A stretch of 64,000 bases of DNA, from NCBI GenBank assembly GCA_050998515.1, contig JBPCQC010000079.1:6177-70176 (forward strand). Reading direction: 5' to 3'. The position numbers and the translations under genes were made by a program. Shown here piece after piece: positions 5,547-49,594 of the stretch. This DNA comes from Verrucomicrobiales bacterium. GTDB taxonomy: Bacteria; Verrucomicrobiota; Verrucomicrobiia; Verrucomicrobiales; V1-33. How positions within the stretch are numbered: position 1 is the first letter of the stretch; each line of letters starts with the position of its first letter. The notes beneath the pieces are model-generated. The model was not told where the DNA came from. It searched no databases and saw only the letters and a list, made by a program, of their open reading frames with translations.

Positions 5547-6035
5547 GAATCCCAATTCCCTCCATGTTTGCGGGTGGGTTTTGTCGCGGCTGGCCCGCTT
5601 CGTTGTGAAACAGGATCGCGATTGAGTCGCCGCCGGCAGAAGTATTCGGGCTCCTGGCTCCAAGCCTTCGCCTCGGCCTTCACTCGACTCCTGGCGAGCG
5701 CGTCGGCTCGAGGCCAGCGTGCTCGTTCGGGATCAAATTGGCTTTGCCGCGGCCGTGAGGCCGCGTGAAGCGTTGTCACCAGTTACCGCAGCGCAGACTG
5801 CTCTGGATTTGCACCAGATTCCATCTGCCAGGGCGTGTGCGCCCATAATAGGGCGCGGGGGCAGCGCGTCAACTGCGCTTCGTGTTCAGTGGCCGTTGTC
5901 GGACCGCAGGCTTTCATCTGGCTTTGACCCTGCCGTGTCGCCGGCTTGCAGCCGGCAGCGCCAAGTTCGATCGGCTTCGCCCCAACGATGCAGACCACAG
6001 CTCCGCGAAGCGGCAGACTGAAAGTCTGCGGTACG

Positions 6036-7751: not shown

Positions 7752-10100
7752 ATGATTCGCCCATTTGTTGTATTCTTCGGTGTCCTGAACTCAGCGGGAC
7801 GGTTATTGGGTGGCGTAGAGTTGGCTGCCGATAAAATGCACGACATTGACGCGGCGATTGAGCGTCGCATTGAAGAGGGACGATTGCCTGGCGCGGTGGT
7901 GTGGATCGAACGTCGTGGTGAAGTTCATCATCGTGCATTTGGGTGGCGCAGCCTTATCCCGGAGGTGACGGCCATGACACCAGACGTCATTTTCGATGTG
8001 GCGTCGCTGACCAAAGTGGTTGCCACCACCCCCGCTATCATGAAGCTGGCCGAGCAGGGAAAAGTCGACCTTGAAGCTCCCGTTTCAAAATACATCGCGG
8101 AGTTTTCAGGCGATGGCCGCGAGGGCATCCCGGTGAAATGGCTGATGACACACAACTCCGGTCTGCCCCCCGGCATCAAGTTCGATGCCGAGTCGCCATG
8201 GTCAGGCTATGGCCAAGGAATCGCGCGCGCCTGTCGCGAACCGCTTATACACACTCCTGGAACGAATTTCGTCTACAGCGACATAAACTTTATCCTCCTT
8301 GGGGAAATCGTCCGGCGGGCCAGCGGGCAATCACTCGCTGAATTTATCCGGAAAAACGTATTTATCCCGTTAGGTATGAACGATACAGGCTTTCAGCCGA
8401 TCAAGAGCAGGCGCTCGCGGATAGCGCCCACCGAGGTCGAGCGTTCCCATCAGCCACTGCACGGGGTCGTACATGATCCAACCTCGCGGCGCATGGGCGG
8501 CATCGCGGGCCACGCCGGACTTTTCACGACGGCACATGATCTCGCTCGCTACTGCCGCATGCTGCTCAATAAAGGTATTCTCGATGGCCGTCGCGTGCTG
8601 GCCGAAGAGTCCGTTGCGCGCATGACCACCCAGCAGTCGCCGGCGGGACTCCCAGCGAAACGTGGACTTGGTTGGGATTTGCGTTCGCGCTTCACTCACC
8701 AGCGCGGCGACTTCTTCCCGGACGGCTCGTTTGGCCACACTGGCTGGACCGGACCATCGATATGGATCGATCCGGCCTCGCAGACGCTTGTCGTTTTTCT
8801 GACCAATCGCAACCATCCCACCGAAGCGGGATCAACCGGGATTCTGCGCCATAGAATCGGCACCTTCGCTGCTGAGGCCAGTGCCGGTTGGAAACGGGTC
8901 GTGCTGCCCGGACTGGCGTTGCCTTTGCCGGAAGGGATCGCTGCGCAATTGCCGGTTATCGGTAAAAGTTCTTCCAACGTCCTGAACGGCATCGATGTGC
9001 TCGAGCGCGACCATTTTGCGGTCCTGAAAAACCTGCGTGTCGGATTAATCACGAATCACACTGGGATCGATCGGCAGCGGCAACCTGCCATCGACATCCT
9101 CGCGAAGGCGCCTGGGGTGAAACTGGCTGCGTTGTTCAGTCCCGAGCATGGACTGCGCGGGGCACTGGACCAGGCCAAAATCAGGGATGCCACAGACGAA
9201 AAATCAGGGCTGCCCATCTTCAGTCTCTATGGCGAAAGCCGTGCTCCCACTGCCGCCCAGCTCGCTGGTGTGGACGCCCTCGTTTTTGATATCCAGGACA
9301 TTGGCTGCCGGTTTTACACCTATATCTCGACCATGGTTTTGGCCATGGAGGTTGCCGGGCGCGAAAAGAAGAAGTTCGTTGTGCTCGACCGTGTGAATCC
9401 GATCAACGGTTTGGACGTTGGCGGACCGCTGCGTGAGGGACCGGACACTTTCACCGCGGCGCATCGATTGCCGGTGAGACACGGAATGACCGCCGGAGAG
9501 ATTGCCCGGATGGTTGTCCAAGAGCGCAAATGGACTGTCGATCTGCACGTGGTGCGGTGCGAGGGTTGGAGGCGCTCACAGTATTTTGACGAGACCGGGC
9601 TTCCTTGGGTCAATCCTTCACCGAACATGCGAAGCCTGATCGCCGCCGTTTTGTATCCCGGGGTGGGTTTGCTCGAATTTACCAACCTCAGCGTGGGGCG
9701 AGGCACAGATTCACCGTTTGAATTGGTCGGCGCGCCCTGGATTGACGAAACTGCATTGTCCGCAGATTTTAATGCCGCTGGGTTGCGAGGAATTTCCGCT
9801 GTGCCAGTGCAGTTCACTCCGGCCGCCAGTGTTTACAACGGCCAGACTTGCCGCGGCCTGCGCCTGCTCTTAAAGGACCGCGGCGAGTGCGAGCCCGTGG
9901 CCATAGCCGCGGCCCTCGCCAGCGCGCTGTGTCGCTTGCATCCGAAAGATTATCAGACGACTAACCTCAATAAACTTCTGTGCCATGAACGCACCGCTGC
10001 TGCCATGAAGGCCGGCCGTCCTGCGCTGGAAATTCGCCAGCTTTGGCGCGCCGACGAACGCTCCTTTCTCCTCCGCCGCCGCAAGTGGCTCCTCTACTGA
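7752..10100 (+). CDS. Beta-lactamase-fold serine hydrolase (AmiE-like) fused to a DUF1343/NamZ-like exo-beta-N-acetylmuramidase domain
   Basis: N-terminal half has SxxK (SLTKVV), the YSD... and HTG motifs of PF00144. C-terminal half matches DUF1343 (LRVGLITNHTGIDRQ...LFSPEHGLRG...VFDIQDIGCRFYTYISTM). Confidence 0.85.
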   Translation: MIRPFVVFFGVLNSAGRLLGGVELAADKMHDIDAAIERRIEEGRLPGAVVWIERRGEVHHRAFGWRSLIPEVTAMTPDVIFDVASLTKVVATTPAIMKLAEQGKVDLEAPVSKYIAEFSGDGREGIPVKWLMTHNSGLPPGIKFDAESPWSGYGQGIARACREPLIHTPGTNFVYSDINFILLGEIVRRASGQSLAEFIRKNVFIPLGMNDTGFQPIKSRRSRIAPTEVERSHQPLHGVVHDPTSRRMGGIAGHAGLFTTAHDLARYCRMLLNKGILDGRRVLAEESVARMTTQQSPAGLPAKRGLGWDLRSRFTHQRGDFFPDGSFGHTGWTGPSIWIDPASQTLVVFLTNRNHPTEAGSTGILRHRIGTFAAEASAGWKRVVLPGLALPLPEGIAAQLPVIGKSSSNVLNGIDVLERDHFAVLKNLRVGLITNHTGIDRQRQPAIDILAKAPGVKLAALFSPEHGLRGALDQAKIRDATDEKSGLPIFSLYGESRAPTAAQLAGVDALVFDIQDIGCRFYTYISTMVLAMEVAGREKKKFVVLDRVNPINGLDVGGPLREGPDTFTAAHRLPVRHGMTAGEIARMVVQERKWTVDLHVVRCEGWRRSQYFDETGLPWVNPSPNMRSLIAAVLYPGVGLLEFTNLSVGRGTDSPFELVGAPWIDETALSADFNAAGLRGISAVPVQFTPAASVYNGQTCRGLRLLLKDRGECEPVAIAAALASALCRLHPKDYQTTNLNKLLCHERTAAAMKAGRPALEIRQLWRADERSFLLRRRKWLLY

Positions 10101-10145
10101 GGCCCCGGCGCCGTCCAATCCTCAAACGATGCTCAGAACCAATCC

Positions 10146-11114
10146 ATGAATGAAGACAAACGAAGCTTGCGCGTGGCGGCGGTGCAGTTTGAAAGCGCGC
10201 CCGGCGACAAAGAAGCTAACTTTCGCAAAATCGAATCGTTCGGCGAACAGGCCGCCGCACGGGGCGTTCGGTTGATCCTTTTACCCGAATGCTGTATTAC
10301 CGGTTACTGGTTCATCCGAAATCTTTCTGTCGAGCAGTTGGCTGCGCTCGCCGAACCGATTCCGGATGGCCCGAGCACGCGACGGCTAATTGAACTGGCA
10401 CGAAAGCTTGGGATGACGATTGGCGCCGGCTTCGTCGAGGCGGGGGCGCCAGGTGAATTCCACAACAGCTATGTGGTTGCAATGGCCGATGGCAGCTTCC
10501 AACGCCATCGCAAAATTCATTCTTTCGAACACGAATCGATTGTCAGCGGCTCCGAATTCACCGTCTTCGACATCCCGGACGGATTCCGCGTCGGTTTGCT
10601 GATTTGTTACGATTGCAACATCGTCGAAAATGTCCGTCTGACCGCGCTTGCTGGCGCGGAGATTCTGCTCGCGCCGCATCAAACCGGTGGCGTGCGCAGC
10701 AAAAATCCGCATCTCATGGGATTGATCGACCGTCGTCTGTGGGACCAGCGGCACAATGACCCCGCGTCGATCGAGGCAGAATTTCGCAGCGACAAAGGAC
10801 GAGGCTGGCTTATGCGCTGGCTGCCGAGCCGCGCGCACGACAACGGCCTCTTCCTCATATTCAGCAATGGCGTCGGCGTCGACGACGACGAGATTCGCAC
10901 CGGCAATGCCATGATTCTCGATCCCTACGGCCGCATCCTCGCTGAAACCTGGAAAGCCGCCGATGACATGGTGATCGCCGATCTCGATGCCAGTTTGCTC
11001 GCCGAAAGCACCGGCGGAAAATGGATTCGCGCCCGCCGCCCCGACCTCTACACCCCGCTCACCGTCCTCACGGGGAATGAATGCGAAACTCGCAAGCTGA
11101 AGTTTGAAGAGTGA
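10146..11114 (+). CDS. Carbon-nitrogen hydrolase (nitrilase superfamily)
   Basis: ATG at 10146. E-K-C triad context: VAAVQFES...LILLPECC (Glu), catalytic Cys in LLICYD. Confidence 0.85.
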   Translation: MNEDKRSLRVAAVQFESAPGDKEANFRKIESFGEQAAARGVRLILLPECCITGYWFIRNLSVEQLAALAEPIPDGPSTRRLIELARKLGMTIGAGFVEAGAPGEFHNSYVVAMADGSFQRHRKIHSFEHESIVSGSEFTVFDIPDGFRVGLLICYDCNIVENVRLTALAGAEILLAPHQTGGVRSKNPHLMGLIDRRLWDQRHNDPASIEAEFRSDKGRGWLMRWLPSRAHDNGLFLIFSNGVGVDDDEIRTGNAMILDPYGRILAETWKAADDMVIADLDASLLAESTGGKWIRARRPDLYTPLTVLTGNECETRKLKFEE

Positions 11115-36610: not shown

Positions 36611-38440
36611 TCAACGCTCCAACCGGGAAAGGGTGGCGACAACTTCCTTTTGTTCTTTCGAGGAGATGGGTGCGGCGGCTTCAGCCAGTCCAGCGTAACT
36701 GAGGCGGGTTTGGCGGGCCAAAATCTGTTCGAGCTCGCCGTTAAGCCCGCTCGCGGTGCCGGCCCGCCCATGGTAGAATTCCCGGGAATCGACGAATTCG
36801 CGGGCGAGAGCATAAAAGTCGCGCGCGGCCAATCCGGGACGCTTCATTTGGCGCAAGATAACCAGGGAGGCTCTTGGATGGCCGATTCGGCGGCGGCGTG
36901 TCTCCTCTGCGCTCAGCCGCAACCGTCGCTGCAGTCCCATGCCAGCGAAGGTTAAAACAAGAGCGGCAGGCACCGCCTGAATGCCCCAAAATACCGCGGC
37001 GTCGGATTTTCGCGGGGTCAGGTTGCGCAGTTCGGCGCCTTCCGGCCTCACCGTGAGGATGTCCGCAAGACGCTCCTCCGGAATCGCCGCTTCGGATATC
37101 GCGAAATCTTTGGTCGGTGCTTCATCGCTTCCTGCTGGCGCCGCTTTCTCCTCGGGCGTCATTTGCAGCGGAATCGCATTCGATTGCACGGTCACGTATT
37201 TTTTTTGATCGAGGTCAAAATAGGAGAGCTGAAACGGCGGGACCTGCTGAGCCATTTTTTGAGGGATGATCACCTGGCTGAAACTGACGACGCCGGGCTC
37301 GAGTCCCAGCGAGCGATTTTCCTGCGTTTGCTTGGGCGGATAGATTTTCCAGCCTTCCGGTGAGGCCAGAAGGGGCGCCGCAACGCTGTCGAAGTTCCCC
37401 TGGCCTGCCACGGTGAGGTCGACGGCGAGCGGGTCACCCATTCGCACTTGCGGCGGTTGATTGAGACGGGCACTGAGGGTGAATTTCCCGACCGCACCCG
37501 AGAAATCAGCCGGCCGGCCTTCCGTTGGGAGCGGCTTGATGGTGATCTTGAGCACGTTGCTTTCGAGGTGGATTTGTCGGGTGATAGTGCGCTGAAAAAA
37601 CGATGGAAATCCGGGAGTTGGGGTGCGGGCACCGCTCCCTTCGGAAGGAAAATCGACCACGCAGTCCAACGTGGCGGGGCCAAGGTTCAAGAGACCCTCC
37701 TTAATGGCGGAAAGTGAGCTGCTGAAGACAATTGATTGGTACCGTTCGCCCTTGGCCTCGACCAACTCTCCCTGAAGCGGCTGAGCGAAACGTTTCACGA
37801 CAAAGTTGTCACGCGGCAACTTCGGAGGCTCGTAATTGCGCAGTTGGGTGCGTCGGTGAAACAAAGCGGTCACCTTCAAGGGCACCACTTCGCCCACGAA
37901 GATCTCCGGCTGCTCGACCTGCAGGGTGAGCAAAGGTTCATAGGAATGCCGCGGACCGACCCCTTCCTGCACCTGCAAGGTTTTTTCAGGCACCGACAGG
38001 GCCTGGCCGTTGACGATCACCTGCTGCCCCGGAATGGTAAAAAGCCCCGGGTTAGCCGCAAAAATCTGCCAGACGAACTCGGTTTGCTGCCGCAACACAC
38101 CGTTCGTCAAGCTCATGGAATTGCGGGAACTCGGCCCGTTGAATTCAAGACCCGGGACAGCAAGATTGGTGGGCAACTGTTGGATCTGGTGGCCGTTCTC
38201 GATCGTGAGCGAATATTCAGCGGTCTGACCCGCGCCAATGACCGGCGGCGAAACTGTGGCCGTTACCTGGGCTCGAACGGATGAGATGGACGCCATGAGG
38301 GCGGCGACTATTGGGAGGAAGGCAATTATGGACGGGCGCAATGATGGTGGACGCGACGCCTCGTCGCGTCTGGCGAATTCACTGAACGCGACGGGGGCGC
38401 CGCGTCCACCTTTCCAAATGTTGGGAGGACCGTTTCCCAT
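36611..38440 (-). CDS. batD: BatD-like oxygen-tolerance protein
   Basis: First ATG at 38440 (the track start is TTG). N-terminal hydrophobic segment IIAFLPIVAALMASISSVRAQ. Large periplasmic region, then a C-terminal TM helix plus a cytosolic TPR-like tail, typical of BatD. Confidence 0.75.
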   Translation of the reverse strand: MGNGPPNIWKGGRGAPVAFSEFARRDEASRPPSLRPSIIAFLPIVAALMASISSVRAQVTATVSPPVIGAGQTAEYSLTIENGHQIQQLPTNLAVPGLEFNGPSSRNSMSLTNGVLRQQTEFVWQIFAANPGLFTIPGQQVIVNGQALSVPEKTLQVQEGVGPRHSYEPLLTLQVEQPEIFVGEVVPLKVTALFHRRTQLRNYEPPKLPRDNFVVKRFAQPLQGELVEAKGERYQSIVFSSSLSAIKEGLLNLGPATLDCVVDFPSEGSGARTPTPGFPSFFQRTITRQIHLESNVLKITIKPLPTEGRPADFSGAVGKFTLSARLNQPPQVRMGDPLAVDLTVAGQGNFDSVAAPLLASPEGWKIYPPKQTQENRSLGLEPGVVSFSQVIIPQKMAQQVPPFQLSYFDLDQKKYVTVQSNAIPLQMTPEEKAAPAGSDEAPTKDFAISEAAIPEERLADILTVRPEGAELRNLTPRKSDAAVFWGIQAVPAALVLTFAGMGLQRRLRLSAEETRRRRIGHPRASLVILRQMKRPGLAARDFYALAREFVDSREFYHGRAGTASGLNGELEQILARQTRLSYAGLAEAAAPISSKEQKEVVATLSRLER

Positions 38441-38445
38441 GGCGA

Positions 38446-40509
38446 CTACCAATCCTTAAATGTGCCTTCCGGCACCGCCTTGTCCGCGAGTGGCCGAACA
38501 TAATCCTCGTCGGTCAGCGCGCGCAGCAGGGCGCGCGCCTCGTTTCGGCTAAAGCCCGTGGTCTTGTCCCGCCGGTTGTCACCCTGGGCCATTTGTTGCG
38601 CCCGTTTCTTCTTCGCGTCTCCCGATTCTCCCTGGCCAGCGTTGCTTTTCGCCTCGAGCTTGCCTTCGGCGTTTTGTTCCCCGCGGCGTTCCTTTTCATT
38701 TCCTTCAGGCGGCGTTTGGTTGGGATCCTCCTTGCCGCCTCCTTTTTGGCCGCCTTCCTGCGGTTTACTTCCCTCGCCAGGATTTTGTCCCTCTTCTCCC
38801 TTTCCTTCCTCCCCCTCCTCCTCTTCTCCTTCTCCCTCGTCTTCACCTTCTTCGTCACCTTGCTCTCCTGAATTTCCCGATTCCCCCTCTTCGCCCTGTT
38901 GGCCGTTGGGTTGCTGCTCGCCTTGCTGACCGCCCTGTTGCTTGTTCTTCTTGCCCGCTTTGCTTTTTTGTCTCAGCTGCTCGCGATATTTCTTCAATTC
39001 TTCCAGGTATTTCTTTACCTCGTCACGGTTGTGCTGGGCGTCACCGTTCCCGGGAGCGAGGGCAAGCGACGCGTCATAATGCTCGACGGCCGTGGTCAGA
39101 ATGTCGATCATCCGGGTGATACGTCCCTTGCCTTTCGGCAGCGATTGCGCTTTGCCTGCCAGGGCGTTGGCGAGGTTGTATTCCGCCTGGGCCTGATTGG
39201 ACGGGGTCTTCGAGATCAGGGCCCGTCCAAATGACTCGATCGCGGCATCGAAATCCTTAAGCCGATAGGCGGCGGCGGCGCGGCCAAATTCCAATTGGGC
39301 CAGCCGTTCGTCGGAAGGTTTCTTTTCAATTGAGTCGCCGAAGGCGTCGAGCGACTCTTCGTATTGCTGCGCTTGGTAAAGCTGCCACGGGTTTTGTGCG
39401 GCGCGAGGTTTTTGAGCCACAGCCGCACTGAGATTGGTGGCGCCGGTAACGAGCACGAGACCGGCCCACGCTACCGCCGGTCTTGACATCATCGAAGGCG
39501 TCCAGAAGCGCAGCCGCCGACCCATTTTCACGACAAAGGCCGCTGCAAAACACAGGAGAGCGGGAACCAAAGCCCATCGATAACGCTCGATTGGCTGGCG
39601 CTTGTCCTTTTGCGCCTGCGTGCGTGAACGGTCTAATTTGGAAAGAATCACCTGAATACGCCCTTGTAGAACACTCGTACTGCTAAGATTGAGATAAAGC
39701 CCCTGCGTTTCTTTAGCCACACCCTCCAAAGCCTTGTCTTCGAGACGAGAGCGCACCGGCCGCCCTTTTTCGTCTCGCAAAAATCCGCCCGGCCGGCGCG
39801 AGTTGAAGTCTGGCAGCAGGGTCCCTTCACGCGTGCCTACGCCGACAGCCACGATAATAATATTGTGGTCCTTTGCTTTTTTGGCGGCCTCGATGGCTCG
39901 ACCCTCGGTCTCGTCACCATCGGTGAACATAATCAAAGCATGGCTGGCACTGCCGGACTTGTCAAAAGCCTCGATGGCAAGCTCGATCGGTTCCGCGAGG
40001 TTCGATCCGCCGCGGGGAATCAGTTCCTCGTCGAATTGGGCCAGAGTTTCGAGAAGCGCGTCATGGTCGGTGGTGAGAGGCGCCTGGAGAAACGAGCGCC
40101 CGGCAAAGGCGATCAGCCCAATCCTGTCGCCCGGCAACGCCGCGATGAGGTCCTGTGCCGCCAGCTTGGCTCGAGTCAGCCGATCAGGGGTTAGATCAGT
40201 CGCCAGCATCGAGCGCGAAGTGTCCAAAGCGATGATGATCGAGCGCCCCTGGCCGCTGACCTCCCGTTCGGTGTAGCCCCACTGAGGCCGGGCCCAGGCG
40301 GCCACCAGCAGGAGCAGGCCGAGAAGTTCGAGCAAAAAGACGAACGCATCGCGGCCGCGCCAGCCTCCCTGTTTGAGGCTCGAAAGCAAGCGCGGGCCCG
40401 CCACCCGCGCCAGCCGCCGCCGCCCCATTCCATCAGCGATGATTTTCACCACCGCGAGCGGAATGAGCAGCAGCAAAAAGAGAAAAGCGTCGGCGTTGGC
40501 GAATTGCAT
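38446..40509 (-). CDS. batB: BatB-BatC fusion: N-terminal TM + vWA domain, central TM, TPR region, ~150-aa poly-acidic E/G/Q-rich tail
   Basis: ATG 40507-40509 (MQFANADAFLFLLLLIPLAVV). vWA MIDAS context (IIIALDTSRSM...TDG). TPR (AAAYRLKDFDAAIESFGRAL). Tail GEEGESGNSGEQGDEEGEDEGEGEEEEGEEGKGEEG. Confidence 0.8.
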   Translation of the reverse strand: MQFANADAFLFLLLLIPLAVVKIIADGMGRRRLARVAGPRLLSSLKQGGWRGRDAFVFLLELLGLLLLVAAWARPQWGYTEREVSGQGRSIIIALDTSRSMLATDLTPDRLTRAKLAAQDLIAALPGDRIGLIAFAGRSFLQAPLTTDHDALLETLAQFDEELIPRGGSNLAEPIELAIEAFDKSGSASHALIMFTDGDETEGRAIEAAKKAKDHNIIIVAVGVGTREGTLLPDFNSRRPGGFLRDEKGRPVRSRLEDKALEGVAKETQGLYLNLSSTSVLQGRIQVILSKLDRSRTQAQKDKRQPIERYRWALVPALLCFAAAFVVKMGRRLRFWTPSMMSRPAVAWAGLVLVTGATNLSAAVAQKPRAAQNPWQLYQAQQYEESLDAFGDSIEKKPSDERLAQLEFGRAAAAYRLKDFDAAIESFGRALISKTPSNQAQAEYNLANALAGKAQSLPKGKGRITRMIDILTTAVEHYDASLALAPGNGDAQHNRDEVKKYLEELKKYREQLRQKSKAGKKNKQQGGQQGEQQPNGQQGEEGESGNSGEQGDEEGEDEGEGEEEEGEEGKGEEGQNPGEGSKPQEGGQKGGGKEDPNQTPPEGNEKERRGEQNAEGKLEAKSNAGQGESGDAKKKRAQQMAQGDNRRDKTTGFSRNEARALLRALTDEDYVRPLADKAVPEGTFKDW

Positions 40510-40510
40510 C

Positions 40511-40537
40511 TGAATTGCGGATTGCGGATTGCGGAGC
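40511..40537. repeat. Heptamer tandem array (ATTGCGG)x3, left flank of the four-helix-bundle gene
   Basis: TGAATTGCGGATTGCGGATTGCGGAGC immediately after the batBC start. Confidence 0.7.
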
Positions 40538-40549
40538 TATCGGAGGGTT

Positions 40550-40846
40550 CTATTTCGAGGAACGCGCTGTGCGAATTGAAGCAACGATGATGGAAAGAAT
40601 TTCTTCGCCTTCTCGGTGCAAATCAGCCAGCCTCTCCGGCTTCATTAGTCCTGCCTCGCAGAGCAGTTCGAACCAATTAAGGGTTTCATCCGCCTCTTCT
40701 TCAACGATTCCCAACTTGGCGATGAAGTCGGCCTTCGATTTTCCGCGACAAGCTGAGCGGTAGTTTGCGCCCACGGACGTCGCGGCCTTTAGCAACTGGC
40801 GACAGATTACTTCTGTGCTTCGGCGCGGCGGTAGCGCGTCCAGCAC
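40550..40846 (-). CDS. Four-helix-bundle protein (23S rRNA intervening-sequence protein family), N-terminally truncated
   Basis: GTG start. QLLKAATSVGANYRSACRGKSKADFIAKLGIVEEEADETLNWFELL matches the family core (QLRRAA.SIPSNIAEG..R.S..DF..FL.IA.GS..E...). The first helix (~35 aa) is missing. Flanked by inverted GGATTGC heptamer arrays. Confidence 0.55.
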   Translation of the reverse strand: MLDALPPRRSTEVICRQLLKAATSVGANYRSACRGKSKADFIAKLGIVEEEADETLNWFELLCEAGLMKPERLADLHREGEEILSIIVASIRTARSSK

Positions 40847-40932
40847 CTTGATGACGCGCCGCGAACTGCTTCGTCCGTTCTTTGTGCTGTTCAGTCTTTG
40901 AGTTCATGATTCGCAATGGTGTGCCGAACCTC

Positions 40933-40967
40933 GAATTTCCCAATCCGAAATCCGCAATCCGAAATTC
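40933..40967. repeat. Heptamer array in inverted orientation (CCGAAAT/CCGCAAT), right flank of the four-helix-bundle gene
   Basis: GAATTTCCCAATCCGAAATCCGCAATCCGAAATTC is the reverse complement of the 40511-40537 motif family. Confidence 0.7.
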
Positions 40968-42065
40968 TCATGCAGGAATCTCCCGCATGAGAGTTTGCCT
41001 CAGCGCCATGCCGATGGCCGCGGTGAAAAATGCCGCGCCGACAAACCATTCGAACAGCTCGTCACGTTCGACCAGGGTCTGCCTTTTGATCTCAGTTTTC
41101 TCGAGCCTGTCAATCGTCCCAAAAATCCGCTCGAGGCCGCTGGTATCCTGGGCCCGAAAAAACTGGCCTCCAGTCATGTCGGCAATCCTCTTCATGATTT
41201 CGGTGTCGAATTCCTGCCTCATCCCGGGCAGGTAACGACCGGATCGATCAGGCAGCGGAATGCGGTGATAGCCTTCCGTGCCGACAGCGATGGCGTAAAC
41301 TTTGATGCCGAGATTCTGGGCAAAACGTGCCGCATCCAGCGGCGCAATATTCCCGGAGTTATTCGAGCCGTCGGTTAACAGCACGATCACCTTGCTCTTC
41401 ACGTCCTTGTTGCGGCTGTCAAGGCGCCGGGTCGCGGCAGCGATTCCCGAGCCGATGGCGGTGCCGTCCTCGACGGCTCCCATTCTGACCTGTTCCTCGA
41501 GCGTTTTACGCAGCCACTGGTGGTCGAGCGTAAGCGGACTGGCCACATAGGGCCTTCCGGCAAAGGCAACCAGGCCGATCCGATCGCTCGGGCGGCCGGC
41601 GATAAAATCGCGGCACACCCTTTTCGCGACCGACATGCGATTGACCGTCTGCCCGCCGCTGGTGAAGTCCTCGATCGACATCGAAAGCGAGACATCGATG
41701 GTGAGCATGACTTCGATGCCGCTGCTGGTGATATTTTCCTGCGTGCGCACATGCTGGGGACGGGCCAGCGCGGCGATGCCGAGCGCGAGCGTGAGGTACG
41801 GCAACGCCGCCGAAAACATCCCGAGCGCGGATCGTCCCGGCCGGGCGATCTGTCGCAGCAGGTGGAGTGAGGAAAATGTCACCGCGGGTCCAGCGCCGCG
41901 TGCCCCCCGCAAAAATGCCAGCACCGGCAACAACGCGAGCAGCCAAAACCAGGCTGGCTCCGCAAACTGGCATTCCCTTACGTAGCGCCAAAAGCTCTCA
42001 ATACGGAACGGGAAGTCCACAGCGCTTTGGGTTGAATGAGAAAGCATCCGCCTGTGACGGCGCAT
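40968..42065 (-). CDS. batA: BatA-like protein (TM + vWA domain)
   Basis: ATG 42063-42065; the family-typical start lies near FAEPAWFWLLALLPVLAFL. vWA MIDAS (MLTIDVSLSMSIED...LLTDGSNNSG). C-terminal TM. Confidence 0.8.
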   Translation of the reverse strand: MRRHRRMLSHSTQSAVDFPFRIESFWRYVRECQFAEPAWFWLLALLPVLAFLRGARGAGPAVTFSSLHLLRQIARPGRSALGMFSAALPYLTLALGIAALARPQHVRTQENITSSGIEVMLTIDVSLSMSIEDFTSGGQTVNRMSVAKRVCRDFIAGRPSDRIGLVAFAGRPYVASPLTLDHQWLRKTLEEQVRMGAVEDGTAIGSGIAAATRRLDSRNKDVKSKVIVLLTDGSNNSGNIAPLDAARFAQNLGIKVYAIAVGTEGYHRIPLPDRSGRYLPGMRQEFDTEIMKRIADMTGGQFFRAQDTSGLERIFGTIDRLEKTEIKRQTLVERDELFEWFVGAAFFTAAIGMALRQTLMREIPA

Positions 42066-42875: not shown

Positions 42876-43781
42876 TTACCTGCTTCCTCGCTTTTCCCTG
42901 CGGCGGAAAAAGCCATGCAAGGCCGCCTGGTAGTCTTCACCGGCCCGGACGTCGATTTTGTCTATCGAGAGTGATTTGAAGGCGCGGTCGAGGTTTTCCT
43001 GCCACGCGGTGCGCAAAGCGGTGTAATGGCTGCGCACCCGAGCCTTGGCTGTGTTGACGACGATTTCCTCACCCGTCTCAGGATCGGCCAGGCGCAGCCG
43101 GCCGGCATTGGGCAGGGCCAGCTCGGCCGGGTCGGAGACCTGGATCGCGACCACGTCATGTCGAATGGCCGCCGTCCGCAGCGCCGCCTGAACGTTTTCA
43201 CACTGAAAATCAGAAATGACCAGAACCAGACAACGCCGGCTGGTGTGACGGCTGATGAGATCAAGCGCAGGCTTCGGATCCGTGCCGCGCCCGAGAGCCC
43301 GCGCGTAAAGGATGTCACGCACCATGCGAAGCGTCTGCCGGCGGCTCTTCGCCGGAGGCAGGAACAGCTCGACCTGATCGGAAAAAAGCACCAGTCCGCA
43401 CTTGTCCTGGTTGTAGATCGCGGAAAAAGCAAAGACCGCCGCCACCTCCGCGGCCAGTTCACGCTTCGATTGCTCGAGGCTCCCATAAAGGCCCGAACCG
43501 CTGACATCGACCGCCAGATAAACCGTCAGCTCGCGCTCCTCGACGTACTTGCGGATAAACGGTGTCCCTTGCCTCGCCGTGACGTTCCAGTCAATCGACC
43601 GCACTTCATCGCCGGGCTGGTATTCCCTGAAATCATCGAAGTCGATCCCCTGGCCCTTGAACACCGAATGATATTCCCCGCCCGCCTTCGAGCGCACAAT
43701 GCCGCGCGTGATCAGTTCGATGCGCCGAACCTTTTTGAGGAGTTCGGTGATTGAATCGGGCTCGGGAGATACGGTGGCCAT
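42876..43781 (-). CDS. DUF58 protein (MoxR-associated vWA-like)
   Basis: First ATG at 43781 (track start TTG 43787). DUF58 block (GEYHSVFKGQGIDFDDFREYQPGDEVRSIDWNVTAR). Confidence 0.85.
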   Translation of the reverse strand: MATVSPEPDSITELLKKVRRIELITRGIVRSKAGGEYHSVFKGQGIDFDDFREYQPGDEVRSIDWNVTARQGTPFIRKYVEERELTVYLAVDVSGSGLYGSLEQSKRELAAEVAAVFAFSAIYNQDKCGLVLFSDQVELFLPPAKSRRQTLRMVRDILYARALGRGTDPKPALDLISRHTSRRCLVLVISDFQCENVQAALRTAAIRHDVVAIQVSDPAELALPNAGRLRLADPETGEEIVVNTAKARVRSHYTALRTAWQENLDRAFKSLSIDKIDVRAGEDYQAALHGFFRRREKRGSR

Positions 43782-43924
43782 CGGCAATGCTATGATTGGT
43801 AATTGTTAAATGCCAATATGCTTTGCCTTCTCGGGCGGCTTGAGATGATTTCGCGCACAATTACCACTGAAGAATTGCTAGACAGCACCTCCGTCAATTG
43901 CGACGGGCAAATTCAAGCTTGTAA

Positions 43925-44180
43925 ATGCCATCCGCAGGCTTGCGAACGCCCCATACGAGCCTGCGAATGGCAGAAACAAGTCTGAAATCGCCATCCGCAG
44001 GCTTGCGGACGCCAAATACAAGCTGCGGAGGGCGTATGCAGGCTTGCGGACGCGAAAAACGAACCTGCGGACGACACAAACTGACTCGTCGCCCGCAGAG
44101 ACCCACTCAGGAACCGCAAAAACAGGTTTGCGATTGCCGAAAGCGAGTGTGCAAGCGGGGATGACCTGCTTGCGACTGGT
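43925..44180. repeat. Iteron-like array of a ~16-nt motif GCAGGCTTGCGGACGC (three direct copies plus several inverted/partial copies at irregular spacing)
   Basis: CCATCCGCAGGCTTGCGAACGCC at 43928-43950. CCATCCGCAGGCTTGCGGACGCC at 43991-44013. ATGCAGGCTTGCGGACGCG at 44036-44054. Inverted AGCCTGCGAATGG at 43957-43970. CCTGCGGACGA at 44064-44074. Confidence 0.6.
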
Positions 44181-44337
44181 TACTTCGGCTTTGCCGATCC
44201 CTTTCCTGGGAGGGGTATGCGCTCCCGAACCGTAGTGGCAGGCCGTTGCTTCGCCGTGCCATCTTTAACAAAGCGGCCGTTCACCGCGCTCCGTTCTCCG
44301 ATTCTACTTTGTGGCTTCTTGCTGATGATCTCCTTTC

Positions 44338-44366
44338 TTGGGTGATGTCTCCTCCACTTTATATTG
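44338..44366 (+). promoter_or_regulatory. Candidate sigma70-type promoter for the methyltransferase gene (TTGGGT-17-TATATT)
   Basis: -35 TTGGGT at 44338-44343, 17-nt spacer, -10 TATATT at 44361-44366, 25 nt upstream of ATG 44392. Sequence match only. Confidence 0.35.
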
Positions 44367-44391
44367 GGGCTCGATTCTGATCAAGCACAAC

Positions 44392-46087
44392 ATGCAGGCC
44401 ACTGAGGTCGAAAACTCGCCTTGTCATCGGTGGTCCGAACCCGCACAATTCCGTTTAATGGGAACGCTCTATTACGGCGACAATCTCGATATTCTGCGCC
44501 GCTACATCGAGGACGAGTCGGTCGACCTCGTTTACCTCGATCCGCCGTTCAACTCAGCGCAAAACTACAACGCCTTCTTTCAGGAAAAGGACGGGACCGC
44601 GGCGGCGGCGCAGATCAGCGCTTTCGAGGACACGTGGGAGTGGAATCAGGAGGCCGAGCACGTTTACGGCGAGCTGATTACCCGGGCAGGCAAGGTCCGT
44701 GAGGTGATGGAAGCCTTCATGACCTTTCTCGGTCGCAACGACATGATGGCCTACCTCGTCATGATGGCCCCGCGTCTGGTCGAGCTGCGCCGCGCCCTCA
44801 AGAAAACCGGCTCCCTTTACCTGCACTGCGACCCGACGGCTTCCCATTACCTGAAGCTGCTGCTGGATGCGGTGTTTGGAATTGACGGCTACCGCTCTGA
44901 AATTGTGTGGAAAAGGACGACAACTCACAACGATTCCAAGCGATGGTCCGACAACACCGACACAGTTTTCTTCTATACAAAAAGCAGAGGCAATTCGGAA
45001 TCGTTTACTTGGAACCCGCAGCACGACCAATATAGTGAGGACTACCTCGCCGATAAATATCGTTACGATGATGGCGACGGCCGGGGATCTTACCGGCTCG
45101 ACAACATGACGAGTCCGAACCCAAGGCCGAATATGATGTACGAGTGGAAAGGGCACGCATCACCGGAGAAAGGTTGGCGGTACTCGAAAGAAACAATGGC
45201 GCAGTTAGATGCCGAAGGACGTATCTGGTACCCTTCGAGTAAGGACAAGCGTCCTCAGCTGAAGCGCTACCTCGCGCAAGGCAAAGGTCCTGTCATGGGC
45301 AACCTGTGGACCGACATCAACCCCATCAATTCCCAAGCTCAGGAGCGTCTTGGTTATCCGACCCAAAAGCCCGTAGCCTTGCTCGAGAGGATCATTAAAG
45401 CGAGCTCCGACGAAGGCGACGTAGTGCCTCGATCCCTTCTGCGGGTGTGGTACGACAATTGACGCCGCGGAAAAACTAGGTCGGGATTGGATTGGGATCG
45501 ACATAACCTATCTGGCGATTGCACTGATCAAGAACCGGCTCAAAAGCTCGTACGGCGAGGGCATTCACCTGAAAACGGTGGGAGAGCCGGTCAGTCTCGC
45601 GGATGCGCAGCAGTTGGCGAATGATGACAAATTCCAATTCCAATGGTGGGCGCTGGGGTTGGTAGGCGCGCGCCCGGTGGAGGAAAAGAAAGGCGCCGAT
45701 AAAGGGGTGGACGGCAAGATTTTGTTTAGGGAAACACCCAAAGACCCGAAGTCGCAACAGATCATCTTTTCCGTTAAAGGCGGCGGAGTGAGTGTAAAGG
45801 ACATTCGCGATCTGCGCGGCACCGTCGAGCGAGAGAAGGCGCTCATCGGAGTGCTGGTAACGATGAAGAAGCCGACCAAGGACATGCTATCGGAGGCGGC
45901 CTCGGCTGGTTTTTACGAAAGCACCGTCTGGCAGAAACAGTATCCGAAGCTGCAAATCCACACCGTGGCGGAATTGCTCGATGGCAAGCAGGTCCAGCGC
46001 CCGCCAACCCGGGCGCTGGATGAGACTTTCAAGAACGCGCCGAAGGCACAGAAAAAAGGGGACGAGCAACTGGAGCTACTTCAATGA
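44392..46087 (+). pseudogene. Beta-class N6/N4 DNA methyltransferase fused to a C-terminal Mrr-type PD-(D/E)xK restriction-endonuclease domain, interrupted by a 1-nt frameshift
   Basis: Motif IV DPPF (VDLVYLDPPFN). ...GYPTQKPVALLERIIKASSDEGDVV, then the frame breaks at 45427-45428 (GTGCCTCGAT; one C too many). The +1 frame continues LDPFCGCGTT (motif I) uninterrupted into track ORF 45578..46087, whose product matches Mrr_cat (WALGLVGA...DKGVDGKILF...QQIIFSVKGGGVSVKDIRDLRGTV...GVLVT...). Track pieces: 44338..45462 and 45578..46087. Confidence 0.75.
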
Positions 46088-46542
46088 TCATTGGCGTAAA
46101 TGCGACAAAAGAGGCGATCTTCTTTGCGGAGACGGACACAGCTGGACAAACTTTTTCAATTAAGATCAAACGGTTGGCATTTAACCTGACGGAAACTGAG
46201 GGGCTATTAGATCTGTTCCAAAGCGTCTCCACTCTTCTCTCTGGATATGACCCGGCCAGGTTGACAGCCGTGGCAATATTGCGATGCTGTGGGGGCCAAC
46301 GAGCGTCATCGGTTGAGGCGATCAAAGCTGAAGCCGTCACCGAGTTGGCGATTCGCAAAAAGGCGATCAAGGTCCTCGGTGTGACTCCTCACAGCTTGAA
46401 GAAAGCGTTGCAGTGTGAGGGAGGGCAAAAATGGCGACCACGCGCCAAGCAGCTCTTTAATTCAAACGGTCAACACTCCTATTGGAGTCAAGGCGCGGAT
46501 GGAGCTGTCGCAGCGGCATATAAGGCGAGTCCTCCTCATTGA
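46084..46542 (+). CDS. Hypothetical protein (152 aa), translationally coupled to the flanking genes
   Basis: ATG overlaps the upstream stop (ATGA at 46084-46087) and its stop sits 1 nt before the kinase ATG. No recognisable domain. About 50% GC, below the window background. Confidence 0.5.
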   Translation: MIIGVNATKEAIFFAETDTAGQTFSIKIKRLAFNLTETEGLLDLFQSVSTLLSGYDPARLTAVAILRCCGGQRASSVEAIKAEAVTELAIRKKAIKVLGVTPHSLKKALQCEGGQKWRPRAKQLFNSNGQHSYWSQGADGAVAAAYKASPPH

Positions 46543-46543
46543 G

Positions 46544-47581
46544 ATGTCGTTACCGCGGAAATTTACGAATGTGCGGCAGTTGGGGCCTGGAAAAAACGCT
46601 AAAGTCTTTTCCGCGACGAACAGTTATCTTCAACGAGAGGTCTTTCTAAAAGTTTACCCAATTCCGGCGAGTGATTCATTGTCAGCCCTTAAAGAACCCC
46701 AACTCCTACAGGAGCTTGAGCATCCGAACCTCACGAAAATCTACAGCGCTGACCCTTCCACCGACGATCAAATCCTTTTGGAGATCGAACTGATTGATGG
46801 AGGATCGTTCAAAGACATCATAGACGAAGCCGTCAAAACTGCCACGTGGCCTGCCGTTCACTACTGTCTCGACCTGATTCAAGACGCCGCTGCTGGGTTG
46901 AGCCACCTCCACGCTCACGGTTATGTGCATCGTGATATAAAGCCCGCCAATCTTGTCGTGAAACGCTCACGGGGCCGGCCTCACGGCCTCGTAACCGATC
47001 TTGGCTTTGCAAGCAAACTGAACGATTCCGGGCGAGCATTCGCCAGCCAACACTCGAGGTTGTATCGACCTCCGGAGGTTTGGTCGGGTGCCGGGTATTC
47101 AGTGGCCAGTGACGTGTATCAGCTCGGATTGGTGTTGTTTCAACTTCTCGGCGGCAGCCTAGACCATTCGCTAGCCAACCTGTCAGATAGTGACCTTTTT
47201 ACACGAGTGGCGGCATCGAAATTGGTGGTGGTGGACTCAGTCGGCGCGCACGTTAGCGATTCGTTGCTGCGAGTCATACGGGCATGCATCTGTGGTGAGA
47301 ATCAACGAATCAGCTCGATTAGTGACCTCGTGGTGGGGTTAAACAATGTAAAAGCAAAGCATCCCAATTGGCGCCTCACTTGGGGACCCCATGGATTCCG
47401 CCTTGACCGAAAAGATGCGTCCGGCATGAAGATCAAAGTGGAAGTCAAATCCGCCGGGCATACGCATACCGTGCAGCGCAGCAAAGGCCGGGGCAACTTT
47501 CGGGCGATCGGTGATGCAGGTCAGTTCACGCATCGCAACTTGGGACGCTGCCGCAAATTCCGTCAGTTTATTGAGTTGTAA
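46544..47581 (+). CDS. Hanks-type Ser/Thr protein kinase
   Basis: ATG 46544. Gly-rich loop LGPGKNAKVF, Lys in VFLKVY, catalytic loop HRDIKPANLVV, DLGFA (DFG variant), YRPPEVW (APE-like). About 50% GC. Confidence 0.75.
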   Translation: MSLPRKFTNVRQLGPGKNAKVFSATNSYLQREVFLKVYPIPASDSLSALKEPQLLQELEHPNLTKIYSADPSTDDQILLEIELIDGGSFKDIIDEAVKTATWPAVHYCLDLIQDAAAGLSHLHAHGYVHRDIKPANLVVKRSRGRPHGLVTDLGFASKLNDSGRAFASQHSRLYRPPEVWSGAGYSVASDVYQLGLVLFQLLGGSLDHSLANLSDSDLFTRVAASKLVVVDSVGAHVSDSLLRVIRACICGENQRISSISDLVVGLNNVKAKHPNWRLTWGPHGFRLDRKDASGMKIKVEVKSAGHTHTVQRSKGRGNFRAIGDAGQFTHRNLGRCRKFRQFIEL

Positions 47582-47616
47582 TCCTTTGGCTTGTGCTGCG
47601 GACGGTCGAGGAGAAG

Positions 47617-47849
47617 TCACTGGAGCGGAGTAGCAGCGAGCCGCGCCTTCAAAAAGCGAATCCGGCTTCGCTGAAGCATGACGATTGCAATCAAAGCCAG
47701 CGTAAGCAGGGGCCAGATAATGCAGAATATCCAGATGTTGATCGCTTCGTAAGAGATTCCCAGCAGCCGGGCACCATCGAATAGGATTTCCACGCACCAT
47801 GTAAAGATGGCCTGGGTCAGCGGCGCCGGTTGTATAAGGTCGTGCTCGA

Positions 47850-47853
<4 letters not shown>
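47617..47853 (-). CDS. Possible small two-TM membrane protein, GTG start overlapping the moxR stop (GTGA)
   Basis: 78 codons, hydrophobic (IFTWCVEILF...; IWIFCIIWPLLTLALIAIVML). No ATG start, atypical codons for this genome and ~52% GC, so this may be non-coding. Confidence 0.25.
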
Positions 47854-48839
<986 letters not shown>

Positions 48840-48916
48840 GGGGCGGGAACCTAGGAGAGGATTGCTAAAAAGCAAAAGCGTTGAGCCAAAGCAATCCGCG
48901 GCGTAGAGTGAGGGGC

Positions 48917-49594
48917 ATGAAACTCGCTCTGCCAGGCTGTTTTTTCCTCCTGACCCTCTCCCTTCCGGCGGGATTGGTTTTTGAATCAGCTCATATCAAG
49001 TCAGCGGCGCGGCCGGCGGAAGCGCAGCACGAGGTGAGAATTCCCTTCACGGCTCAGGGGTCGCAATCGATAAGCATTCAGCGCATTGACTCGACCTGCG
49101 GCTGTCTCAGCGCTAAAGCGAACAAGGAAACTTTCGCTGCTGGCGACAAAGGTTATATCACCGCGATTTTCAAGCTGGGGGGTTTCGAAGGGGAAGTGAC
49201 CAAGAGCCTTTATGTCATTACCGATGATCCCGAGCATCCCAAAAAGCATCTCACCGTCAGCATCATGGTGCCGAAGCTTTTCGAAATCACTCCCGAGGTG
49301 ACCTCATGGACGTTGGGTGAAGAGCCGGCCGCCAAAACGGTGTCCTTCAAAGTGCTTCAGGAGAAGCCAGTTGAAATCACCGGGGTTACTTCCACGCGCG
49401 ACAACTTCAAAGCGGAATGGAAGGAAGTCGAGAAAGGCCGGCTGTATGAAATCACGCTGACGCCGACGAGCACGGCTCAGCCGGTTCTCGGCGCCTTGCG
49501 GATCGAAACCACCAGCGAACTGCCCCGATATCGACATCGCATGTGTTTTTTTAATGTCTTGCGCCCGCAGCCGGCACGAACGGCGATTCGATGA
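48917..49594 (+). CDS. DUF1573 domain protein, secreted
   Basis: ATG 48917 (MKLALPGCFFLLTLSLPAG). DUF1573 hallmark (IDSTCGCLSAKANKETF). Confidence 0.8.
   Translation: MKLALPGCFFLLTLSLPAGLVFESAHIKSAARPAEAQHEVRIPFTAQGSQSISIQRIDSTCGCLSAKANKETFAAGDKGYITAIFKLGGFEGEVTKSLYVITDDPEHPKKHLTVSIMVPKLFEITPEVTSWTLGEEPAAKTVSFKVLQEKPVEITGVTSTRDNFKAEWKEVEKGRLYEITLTPTSTAQPVLGALRIETTSELPRYRHRMCFFNVLRPQPARTAIR

Follow-up and report, generated by a model that had tools for sequence, protein, structure and literature searches.

A RuvC-Fold Protein and a Hanks-Type Kinase as a Conserved Gene Pair in Foreign DNA Inserted into a Verrucomicrobial Bat Operon

Introduction

The window analyzed here is a 64,000-nt stretch of Verrucomicrobiales contig JBPCQC010000079.1 (assembly GCA_050998515.1, forward-strand positions 6,177 to 70,176). 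In it, a Bat operon is split between its first gene, moxR, and its DUF58 gene by an insert of foreign DNA carrying three genes on the + strand, as follows. The first encodes a β-class DNA methyltransferase with a C-terminal restriction-endonuclease-fold domain. The second, open reading frame 2 (ORF2), encodes a protein of 152 amino acids (aa), and the third encodes a Hanks-type Ser/Thr kinase. From their distribution, ORF2 and the kinase gene are the conserved functional unit, i.e., a mobile two-gene cassette moving between phyla. The methyltransferase gene is a separate passenger, because it does not co-occur with the pair elsewhere and its G+C content at third codon positions (GC3) is different. 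The insert carries two unrelated cargoes, and it is only in this window that the two are read together as a single + strand transcription unit. The explanation proposed below, which includes a role of the pair in defense or abortive infection, draws on gene context, and we judge the odds of its being right to be slightly better than even.

The ORF2–Kinase Pair as a Conserved Unit

An ORF2 homolog lies directly upstream of the kinase gene in every kinase-family locus examined. The loci, numbered with the prefix L, represent 12 lineages (the window, L001, L004–L006, L007–L009, L010, L091, L110/L112/L122, L171/L172, L173, L174/L175, L180, and L181) from Verrucomicrobiales, Nitrospira, and unclassified metagenome contigs; genes left uncalled at these loci were confirmed by profile searches. 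A further kinase-family member, outside the 12-lineage count, is found in a metagenome-assembled genome (MAG) of the Chthoniobacteraceae. Across loci, the two genes overlap by 4 nt or are spaced by 1–8 nt. In the window, the ORF2 start overlaps the stop of the upstream gene (ATGA, 46084–46087), and the kinase ATG is 1 nt past the ORF2 stop, as expected from the translational coupling described in an initial annotation of this DNA. Pairwise identities of ORF2 and of the kinase are correlated (Pearson 0.90, Spearman 0.78, for 36 non-independent pairs), which indicates that the two proteins co-evolve. In a neighbor-joining tree, ORF2s linked to a kinase are diverse and branch deeply, and the kinase-less ones form one derived clade. 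Seven kinase-less ORF2 relatives lie just downstream of rpsU, encoding S21; an example is L141 (424–918 and the gene after).

The initial annotation had read all three genes of the insert as one module and had named a failure of the three to co-occur elsewhere as a reason to give that module up. By tblastn and gene tables, no relative of the methyltransferase–nuclease-fold protein is near the kinase gene in the other lineages (0 of 11), and the three-gene module falls on this count. What survives is its smaller core, as ORF2 and the kinase alone are together in all 12 lineages.

Searches of mobile-element collections were negative. No ORF2 relative was found in a scan of viral contigs with the ORF2 alignment, and ORF2 also went unmatched by tblastn in 72,556 plasmids and 50,697 phage records. 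With the kinase, just two matches were obtained among the plasmids, both weak and generic, and no copy of the pair was found in the phage, plasmid, or viral collections. A scan of genome contigs with the generic kinase pattern HRD[IV]KPAN found only unrelated kinases, at 25–34% identity. A defense pair made up of a kinase and a RuvC-like protein was not found in the literature, and the cassette is apparently undescribed.

The Kinase

The kinase gene extends from 46544 to 47581 on the + strand and encodes 345 aa, comprising a kinase domain (residues ~1–257) and a basic C-terminal domain (~258–345). The initial annotation had called a eukaryotic-like Ser/Thr kinase, and this family assignment is sound; translation starts at the ATG at 46544 and not at the GTG at 46415. 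The protein matches Pfam Pkinase at 8e-32 (111 bits against a cut-off of 31.7), and the catalytic lysine and the HRDIKPAN and DLG motifs are invariant; K36, H129-R130-D131, K133, N136, D152, and G154 are kept in 50 family members. On these residues, the kinase is predicted to be catalytically competent.

The kinase family is rare and sharply bounded. It comprises ~70 clusters among 5.8 billion proteins, 41–60% identical and 345–350 aa at full length, and it is set off by a score gap, with members at >180 bits and generic kinases following at 85 bits. The last ~88 residues are specific to the family and are modeled as a five-stranded antiparallel sheet with a helix on either side, with a predicted local distance difference test score (pLDDT) of 91. 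In members of the family, this domain is strongly basic, with a median pI of 10.4 and a net charge of +8, the kinase domain being neutral, and it probably binds nucleic acid. The best PADLOC matches of the kinase are mad6 (4e-35) and PD-T4-6 (7e-31), and the top NCBIfam match is MAD6 (3e-30). The likeness to defense kinases suggested in the initial annotation is thus real, and it appears to be one of resemblance, not of membership.

ORF2

No match of ORF2 (46084..46542, + strand) in Pfam, NCBIfam, PADLOC, or PHROGs reaches a curated threshold. The one signal, a Pfam RuvC match, falls short of it, at 18.7 bits against a cut-off of 22.2. Relatives number 10 by a word-indexed search and 120 by a profile search of 1.84 billion representatives. 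One source annotates a member of the family as a RuvC subunit.

The assignment of a RuvC-like, i.e., RNase H-like, fold comes from an AlphaFold model and Foldseek. The model has a pLDDT of 87, a predicted template modeling score of 0.85, and an RNase H-like order of strands and helixes. In a Foldseek search against PDB, the top 25 matches are all Holliday-junction resolvases (bacterial RuvC, MOC1 of plants, and enzymes of phages and poxviruses). The best match, 7xhj, has a template modeling (TM) score of 0.74 with an E value of 6e-8, and RuvC structures have TM scores of 0.66–0.74. A search of the ORF2 profile against PDB sequences returned only a chance match to a nanobody.

RuvC-like resolvases share with ORF2 their size and the fold order β-β-β-α-β-α-β-α.... 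The difference is in the active site. The acidic residues of RuvC, found at the end of β1, at the end of β4, and in the last helix, are missing in the ORF2 family. The position of RuvC D7 is N in the window and S, A, H, R, T, or C in relatives. The end of β4, where RuvC has E66, reads I-L-(K/R)-C, and the last helix lacks an invariant acidic residue where E. coli RuvC has D138 and D141. The invariant motif of the family is SSVEAIKAE. ORF2 accordingly has the RuvC fold in the model but neither the catalytic acids nor a Pfam score above threshold. Judged from the model and the alignment, ORF2 is a protein of the RuvC fold but most probably no RuvC-type nuclease.

Insertion of Foreign DNA into the Bat Operon

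The operon that received the insert lies on the − strand and has intact genes for MoxR, DUF58, BatA and BatB with VWA domains, and BatD in the canonical order. Its first gene, moxR, flanks the insert on the right (47850..48839, with the ORF running to 48875) and encodes a MoxR ATPase (Pfam AAA_3 6e-62, with AAA_lid_2); the database copy of MoxR is 329 aa. The DUF58 gene (42876..43787, Pfam DUF58 6e-74) flanks the insert on the left. It is followed by a DUF4381-like gene, batA (40968–42065, Pfam BatA/VWA), batB with TPR repeats (38446–40509, Pfam VWA and TPR), and batD (36611–38452). The last is assigned by colinearity with L177, whose gene matches PF13584. In the window, moxR and DUF58 are not contiguous: ~4.07 kb with long ORFs on the + strand lies between them.

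The genomes used for comparison were those with the closest MoxR relatives on long contigs, i.e., L177 and L176. L177, with a MoxR 86% identical to that of the window, has the gene order rhodanese, DUF1573, moxR, DUF58, BatA, BatB, BatD and is colinear with the operon of the window. In L177, the DUF58 start overlaps the moxR stop by 4 nt (GTGA). By blastn, window 49568..47847 corresponds to L177 7270..8993, and window 43733..42886 corresponds to L177 9074..9921, leaving about 4.03–4.1 kb of extra DNA in the window. A relic of the ancestral DUF58 start, GTGATCG (CCGTGATCG), is kept at window 47853–47847, beyond which the sequence diverges from L177. By comparison with L177, the insertion has replaced the N-terminus and the start codon of DUF58, and the new start is TTG at 43787 or ATG at 43781.

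Thus, ~4.07 kb of composite foreign DNA was inserted right after the ancestral DUF58 start codon, cutting the coupled moxR–DUF58 junction. The ~4-kb island of opposite orientation between moxR and DUF58, as seen in the initial annotation, is borne out by the gene order and by colinearity with L177, and the contiguity of the two genes in a related bat operon is the result that its insertion hypothesis had called for. Loss of the island from L177 by deletion was considered and rejected. The GTGA overlap in L177 is intact and the relic GTGATCG in the window is fused to foreign sequence, which fits an insertion and not a precise excision.

Composition supports horizontal acquisition of the insert. 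With 0.543 G+C, where the window averages 0.587 (sd 0.014), it is the 4-kb stretch of lowest G+C content in the 64 kb. The initial annotation had noted low G+C content correctly but had overstated it for the right-hand 1.8 kb, which is 0.529, or ~6–7 points below background, not ~10. Third codon positions give a split result. GC3 is foreign in ORF2 (0.54) and the kinase gene (0.57), but in the methyltransferase gene it is host-like (0.69), within the 0.65–0.76 of the native genes. Terminal inverted or direct repeats, an integrase, and a transposase were looked for in the insert, and none is present.

In L176, with a MoxR 87% identical to that of the window, synteny ends exactly at the moxR stop (L176 8990 corresponds to window 47850). 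Beyond it are unrelated genes encoding a 1043-aa secreted PPDK_N protein, a 741-aa kinase, and HrpA, and no DUF58 gene is found within 8 kb. Because L176 is broken at the same base, breakage or integration may be recurrent at the moxR/DUF58 junction, three genomes having been compared.

Two further features are found at the ends of the insert. At the right, the last ~270 nt of the span given in the initial annotation, which ends at 47853, are not part of a + strand gene but hold a − strand ORF of 78 aa (47617..47853) with one predicted hydrophobic, membrane helix. This ORF starts on the ancestral DUF58 start, GTGATCG, where it overlaps the moxR stop and is translationally coupled to moxR, and it continues into insert DNA. 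It has no match in Pfam, PADLOC, NCBIfam, or PHROGs, and tblastn finds no relative in the loci examined. Its reality is uncertain; the insertion may have created it as a chimera or brought it in as the gene of a small membrane protein. At the left, a consensus scan finds a candidate − strand promoter, TTGGCA-18-TAGCAT (43787..43816), which lies in inserted DNA immediately before the new start of DUF58. This candidate promoter may now drive DUF58-BatA-BatB-BatD.

The Methyltransferase Gene

In the ORF list, the METHYLTRANSFERASE gene is two ORFs in different frames, 44338–45462 and 45578–46087. The 5′ part (44392..45462, + strand) encodes motif IV, DPPFNS, and the target-recognition region of a β-class N6/N4 DNA methyltransferase and ends at a premature stop. 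The 3′ part, in the next frame (45428..46087, + strand), encodes motif I, LDPFCGCGTT, and a restriction-endonuclease-fold domain (NA-iREase1/Mrr_cat). Three-frame translation places a +1 frameshift at 45427/45428, before motif I. Frame 1 reads ...SSDEGDVV and ends with ...GDVVPRSLLRVWYDN at a stop at 45460–45462, and frame 2 resumes with LDPFCGCGTTIDAAEKLGRDWIGIDI, motif I of a β-class methyltransferase. Removing one C at 45427/45428 restores a protein of 564 aa, with DPPFNS at residues 50–55 and DPFCGCGTT at residues 347–355. A stand-alone nuclease-fold domain of 169 aa could be made from an internal GTG at 45578.

The repaired protein belongs to the N6_N4_Mtase family (Pfam 7e-42, 144 bits against a cut-off of 26.7). 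Its C-terminal domain matches the inactive family NA-iREase1 (8e-11, 42 bits) better than Mrr_cat (4e-5, 24 bits, cut-off 21), and its motif is GxDG...S-V-K, not (E/Q)-x-K. The domain architecture given in the initial annotation therefore stands, with NA-iREase1 outscoring Mrr_cat, but the methyltransferase is not full length, as its frame is interrupted in the window copy.

Homologs found by tblastn on plasmids of Mesorhizobium (pMLa), Microbacterium, Bradyrhizobium, and Rhizobium are intact and in a single piece, and they read through GDVVLDPFCGCGTT without interruption. The Mesorhizobium pMLa homolog is 44% identical over residues 26–554. Over the whole repaired protein, those of Mesorhizobium japonicum pMLa (WP_044552088) and the Microbacterium plasmid (WP_165137960) are 44–48% identical and have the same domain order. 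The GxDG...SVKGG of the C-terminal domain is conserved in these plasmid homologs, which are solitary methyltransferases in toxin–antitoxin-rich regions with no partner endonuclease. Beside the window copy, too, there is no separate endonuclease gene, and a restriction–modification system of type II or IIG would need the fused domain, with a PD-(D/E)xK motif, as its active endonuclease. The window copy differs from the solitary methyltransferases in being split by the frameshift.

A programmed frameshift was considered and rejected, as the site, GTG-CCT-CGA, has no slippery run and the homologs lack one too. Since the +1 frameshift breaks the gene, the methyltransferase is probably inactive as assembled. 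Activity of the nuclease-fold domain is doubtful. We infer that the methyltransferase gene is a decaying neighbor in the same small defense islet and not part of the pair's system.

Neighborhoods of the Pair in Other Loci

The genes around the pair differ among lineages, and the pattern looks like that of defense and toxin–antitoxin cassettes. In L112, the pair is accompanied by DarT1 and its antitoxin NADAR and by PDC-M19A/B, a candidate system. L010 has VapBC (a PIN toxin with a small upstream gene), L173 has Uma2, PIN, and DUF763, and L181 has GMT-wHTH and DUF5131. L171 has Cas1, Cas2, an SbcCD-like pair, SNase, DUF4145, helix–turn–helix genes, and a resolvase.

In L004/L005, the pair is beside the remnant of a decayed Hma system (HmaA/HmaC). 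The remnant is a 159-aa ORF upstream of the pair (L005 266–745, L004 1–450), in which the N-terminus of HmaA, a helicase, is joined to the C-terminus of HmaC. The PADLOC match to HmaA is 1e-30 over profile positions 1–96, and the HmaC part covers profile positions 898–940. This ORF is what a large deletion has left of an Hma defense system.

The Nitrospira locus, L180, has two copies of hicAB, ParE, a XamI restriction–modification system, and an IS91 transposase. The 3.5-kb segment that holds the pair lies between the two copies of a direct repeat of 509 bp (97.6% identity), at ~1400–1908 and ~4965–5472, each of them with hicAB. In the near-identical L007–L009, the pair and a DUF1016_N fragment are found between paralogous PQQ_2 β-propeller genes (5465–6745 and 9735–11015). 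The L007–L009 locus may be another insertion between duplicated genes.

Proposed Function and Alternatives

The nearest known likenesses of the kinase are Stk2 of Staphylococcus epidermidis and PD-T4-6 of E. coli. All three are Hanks-type, cytoplasmic, ~300–350 aa, and found in defense-type contexts, and none has PASTA or other sensor domains. The differences are that Stk2 and PD-T4-6 are single-gene systems, whereas the kinase here always has a RuvC-fold partner and has a basic C-terminal domain of its own. PD-T4-6 profiles match the kinase domain only, at 7e-31 to 1e-10, ending near residues 270–275, and do no better than generic Pkinase. In Stk2, infection-triggered phosphorylation is reported to lead to growth arrest (Depardieu et al. 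2016).

The cassette may be a kinase-based abortive-infection or toxin–antitoxin-like module. An acid-less resolvase fold and a basic kinase domain both point to nucleic-acid recognition, which is why an infection-specific DNA structure is proposed as the trigger. The dead RuvC-like ORF2, the basic kinase tail, or both would bind a structure that nucleic acids take on during infection, e.g., a branched intermediate of replication or recombination. In another version, ORF2 would hold the kinase inactive until displaced by a phage factor. The released kinase would then phosphorylate host or phage proteins and stop growth, as for Stk2. The most specific form of this proposal is a two-gene anti-phage system in which the RuvC-derived pseudo-nuclease and the kinase tail would sense abnormal phage DNA, switch on the kinase, and abort the infection. 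That form is offered tentatively, at odds below even.

Several observations weigh against the explanation as a whole. The ORF2 model was built from a 10-sequence alignment and was confident in one of five models, and hhalign of ORF2 against E. coli RuvC gave a probability of 0.3%, with nothing significant. Loss of the active site was judged from sequence and a secondary-structure register set by eye against 1hjr, not from a superposition. The mad6 and PD-T4-6 scores of the kinase are hardly above that of generic Pkinase (111 bits), and MAD6 reaches 105 bits against a cut-off of 460. The neighbors of the pair were read locus by locus, not as enrichment against a genomic background, and those in L174 (ribonucleotide reductase) and L007 (PQQ paralogs) are mostly housekeeping genes. 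The frameshift in the methyltransferase gene could be an assembly error. Most members of the ORF2 family, from soil and peat metagenomes (L092–L170), have no kinase and form one monophyletic clade; because of this, and because some follow rpsU, the ORF2 fold is suggested to have a separate, kinase-independent, and possibly housekeeping role.

Four other explanations were weighed. A plain type II toxin–antitoxin pair, with the kinase as a growth-arresting toxin and ORF2 as its antitoxin, would be selfish DNA without a dedicated anti-phage role. Gene order and coupling seem to fit, i.e., a small upstream gene coupled to a larger enzyme with 1–4 nt of spacing or overlap, and the pair is co-inherited, spread across phyla, and found among VapBC, HicAB, ParE, and DarT-NADAR. 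However, relatives of ORF2 are common without a kinase, an unusual pattern for a dedicated antitoxin; no DNA-binding autoregulatory domain of the usual antitoxin types is recognizable in ORF2; and no copy was found on the 72,556 plasmids, where addiction modules are common. This is a possible account but hardly a probable one, and as toxin–antitoxin and abortive-infection functions are not mutually exclusive, it overlaps the explanation that we prefer. The RuvC-like fold and the basic, probably nucleic-acid-binding kinase tail, as modeled, would also suit a housekeeping signaling module for DNA repair, recombination, or replication, in which the kinase regulates, or is the target of, a RuvC-like DNA-binding protein and is only by chance on a mobile fragment here. 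Kinase-less relatives in conserved chromosomal places, such as after rpsU, and pairs beside ribonucleotide reductase agree with such a module. Synteny and vertical inheritance would then be expected, but the pair is patchy and rare, with different neighbors in every lineage; its G+C content in the window is foreign, it is absent from L177, and it is bracketed by repeats and insertion sequence elements in L180. A housekeeping module is therefore thought unlikely.

The three-gene alternative holds that the methyltransferase–Mrr protein, ORF2, and the kinase make up one system like Pgl/BREX type 2 or MADS, methylation marking self and the kinase and nuclease acting on unmodified invaders. The three genes are on one strand in the window, their stop and start codons overlap or abut, and kinases beside DNA methyltransferases are known from MADS (MAD6) and Pgl/BREX type 2 (PglW), with mad6/MAD6 as the best library matches. 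Those kinases are much larger multidomain proteins, with profiles of 612–659 positions for MAD6 and ~1400 for PglW, and, unlike in MADS and Pgl, the methyltransferase is not a conserved neighbor of the kinase here, being missing near the pair in the 11 other lineages. The score for PglW is 46 bits where the cut-off is 990, and that for MAD6 is likewise far short of its own. The other proteins of the insert match no mad family, the methyltransferase is N6_N4_Mtase and not PglX-type, and PglY and PglZ are not found in the insert. The view in the initial annotation that no described system is matched is supported. With a methyltransferase gene frameshifted before its S-adenosylmethionine-binding motif I, a GC3 unlike that of the pair, and homologs that are solitary on plasmids, a three-gene system is decidedly unlikely. 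Finally, as the source is a MAG and the frameshift is a single extra base, the island could be an artefact of assembly or binning, i.e., a chimeric contig, and the frameshift a sequencing error. A chimera is unlikely, since a chimeric join would not lead back to the same operon 4 kb later: colinearity with L177 is taken up on both sides of the insert, and at the junction the ancestral DUF58 start survives in its first 7 nt. An artefactual island is highly improbable; an error at the frameshift alone is possible and would leave the main conclusion unchanged.

The Repeat Array and Other Features of the Region

The left end of the insert (43788..44391) is 604 nt of non-coding DNA with direct and inverted copies of YTGCGRANGVC. 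The window has 11 copies of this motif against 4.1 expected, a number reached in none of 100 shuffles, and 7 of the 11 are found within 150 nt (43927–44075), on both strands. "Iteron-like," the term used in the initial annotation for this array at the DUF58-side border, is a fair description. The array, at about 43890–44190, can form 4–5 consecutive imperfect hairpins, with fold z-scores of −7.2 and −7.05, one for each strand. There is no Rfam match in 43000–48500, and no copy of the array occurs elsewhere in the window or among the 179 loci L001–L179, from which the motif itself is absent. The array lies where the DUF58 gene, with its new start, and the methyltransferase gene diverge, and the + strand genes probably have their promoter region within the 604-nt segment. 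The simplest guess is that the repeats are a regulatory protein-binding array.

A second small gene has entered the operon between batA and batB. It encodes a four-helix-bundle protein of the 23S_rRNA_IVP family (98 aa, 40550–40846, − strand) and occupies a gap from 40510 to 40967. The batA–batB spacing is 14 nt in L177, which makes the 23S_rRNA_IVP gene a second small insertion in the operon of the window. Its G+C content is 0.535, against 0.60 in the flanks. L174 has another 23S_rRNA_IVP gene, inserted between two ribonucleotide-reductase genes. Within batB, window 38500–39000 is a strand-compositional anomaly, with an AT skew down to −0.70 and a GC skew of −0.28, which corresponds to the long, low-complexity linker of BatB, rich in Glu, Gly, Lys, and Gln.

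Significance

The locus is a clean natural case of foreign DNA landing in a translationally coupled gene junction, and the downstream gene, DUF58, survived the insertion by acquiring a new start. As for the pair, it is missed by current defense-finding tools, because ORF2 has no entry above a curated threshold. To our knowledge, kinase-based phage defense is known from only a few systems, namely Stk2, PD-T4-6, PglW, and MAD6, and how they sense infection is mostly unknown. The fold of the kinase's partner points to DNA junctions as the ligand, and this would provide a directly testable idea of the trigger for a defense kinase.

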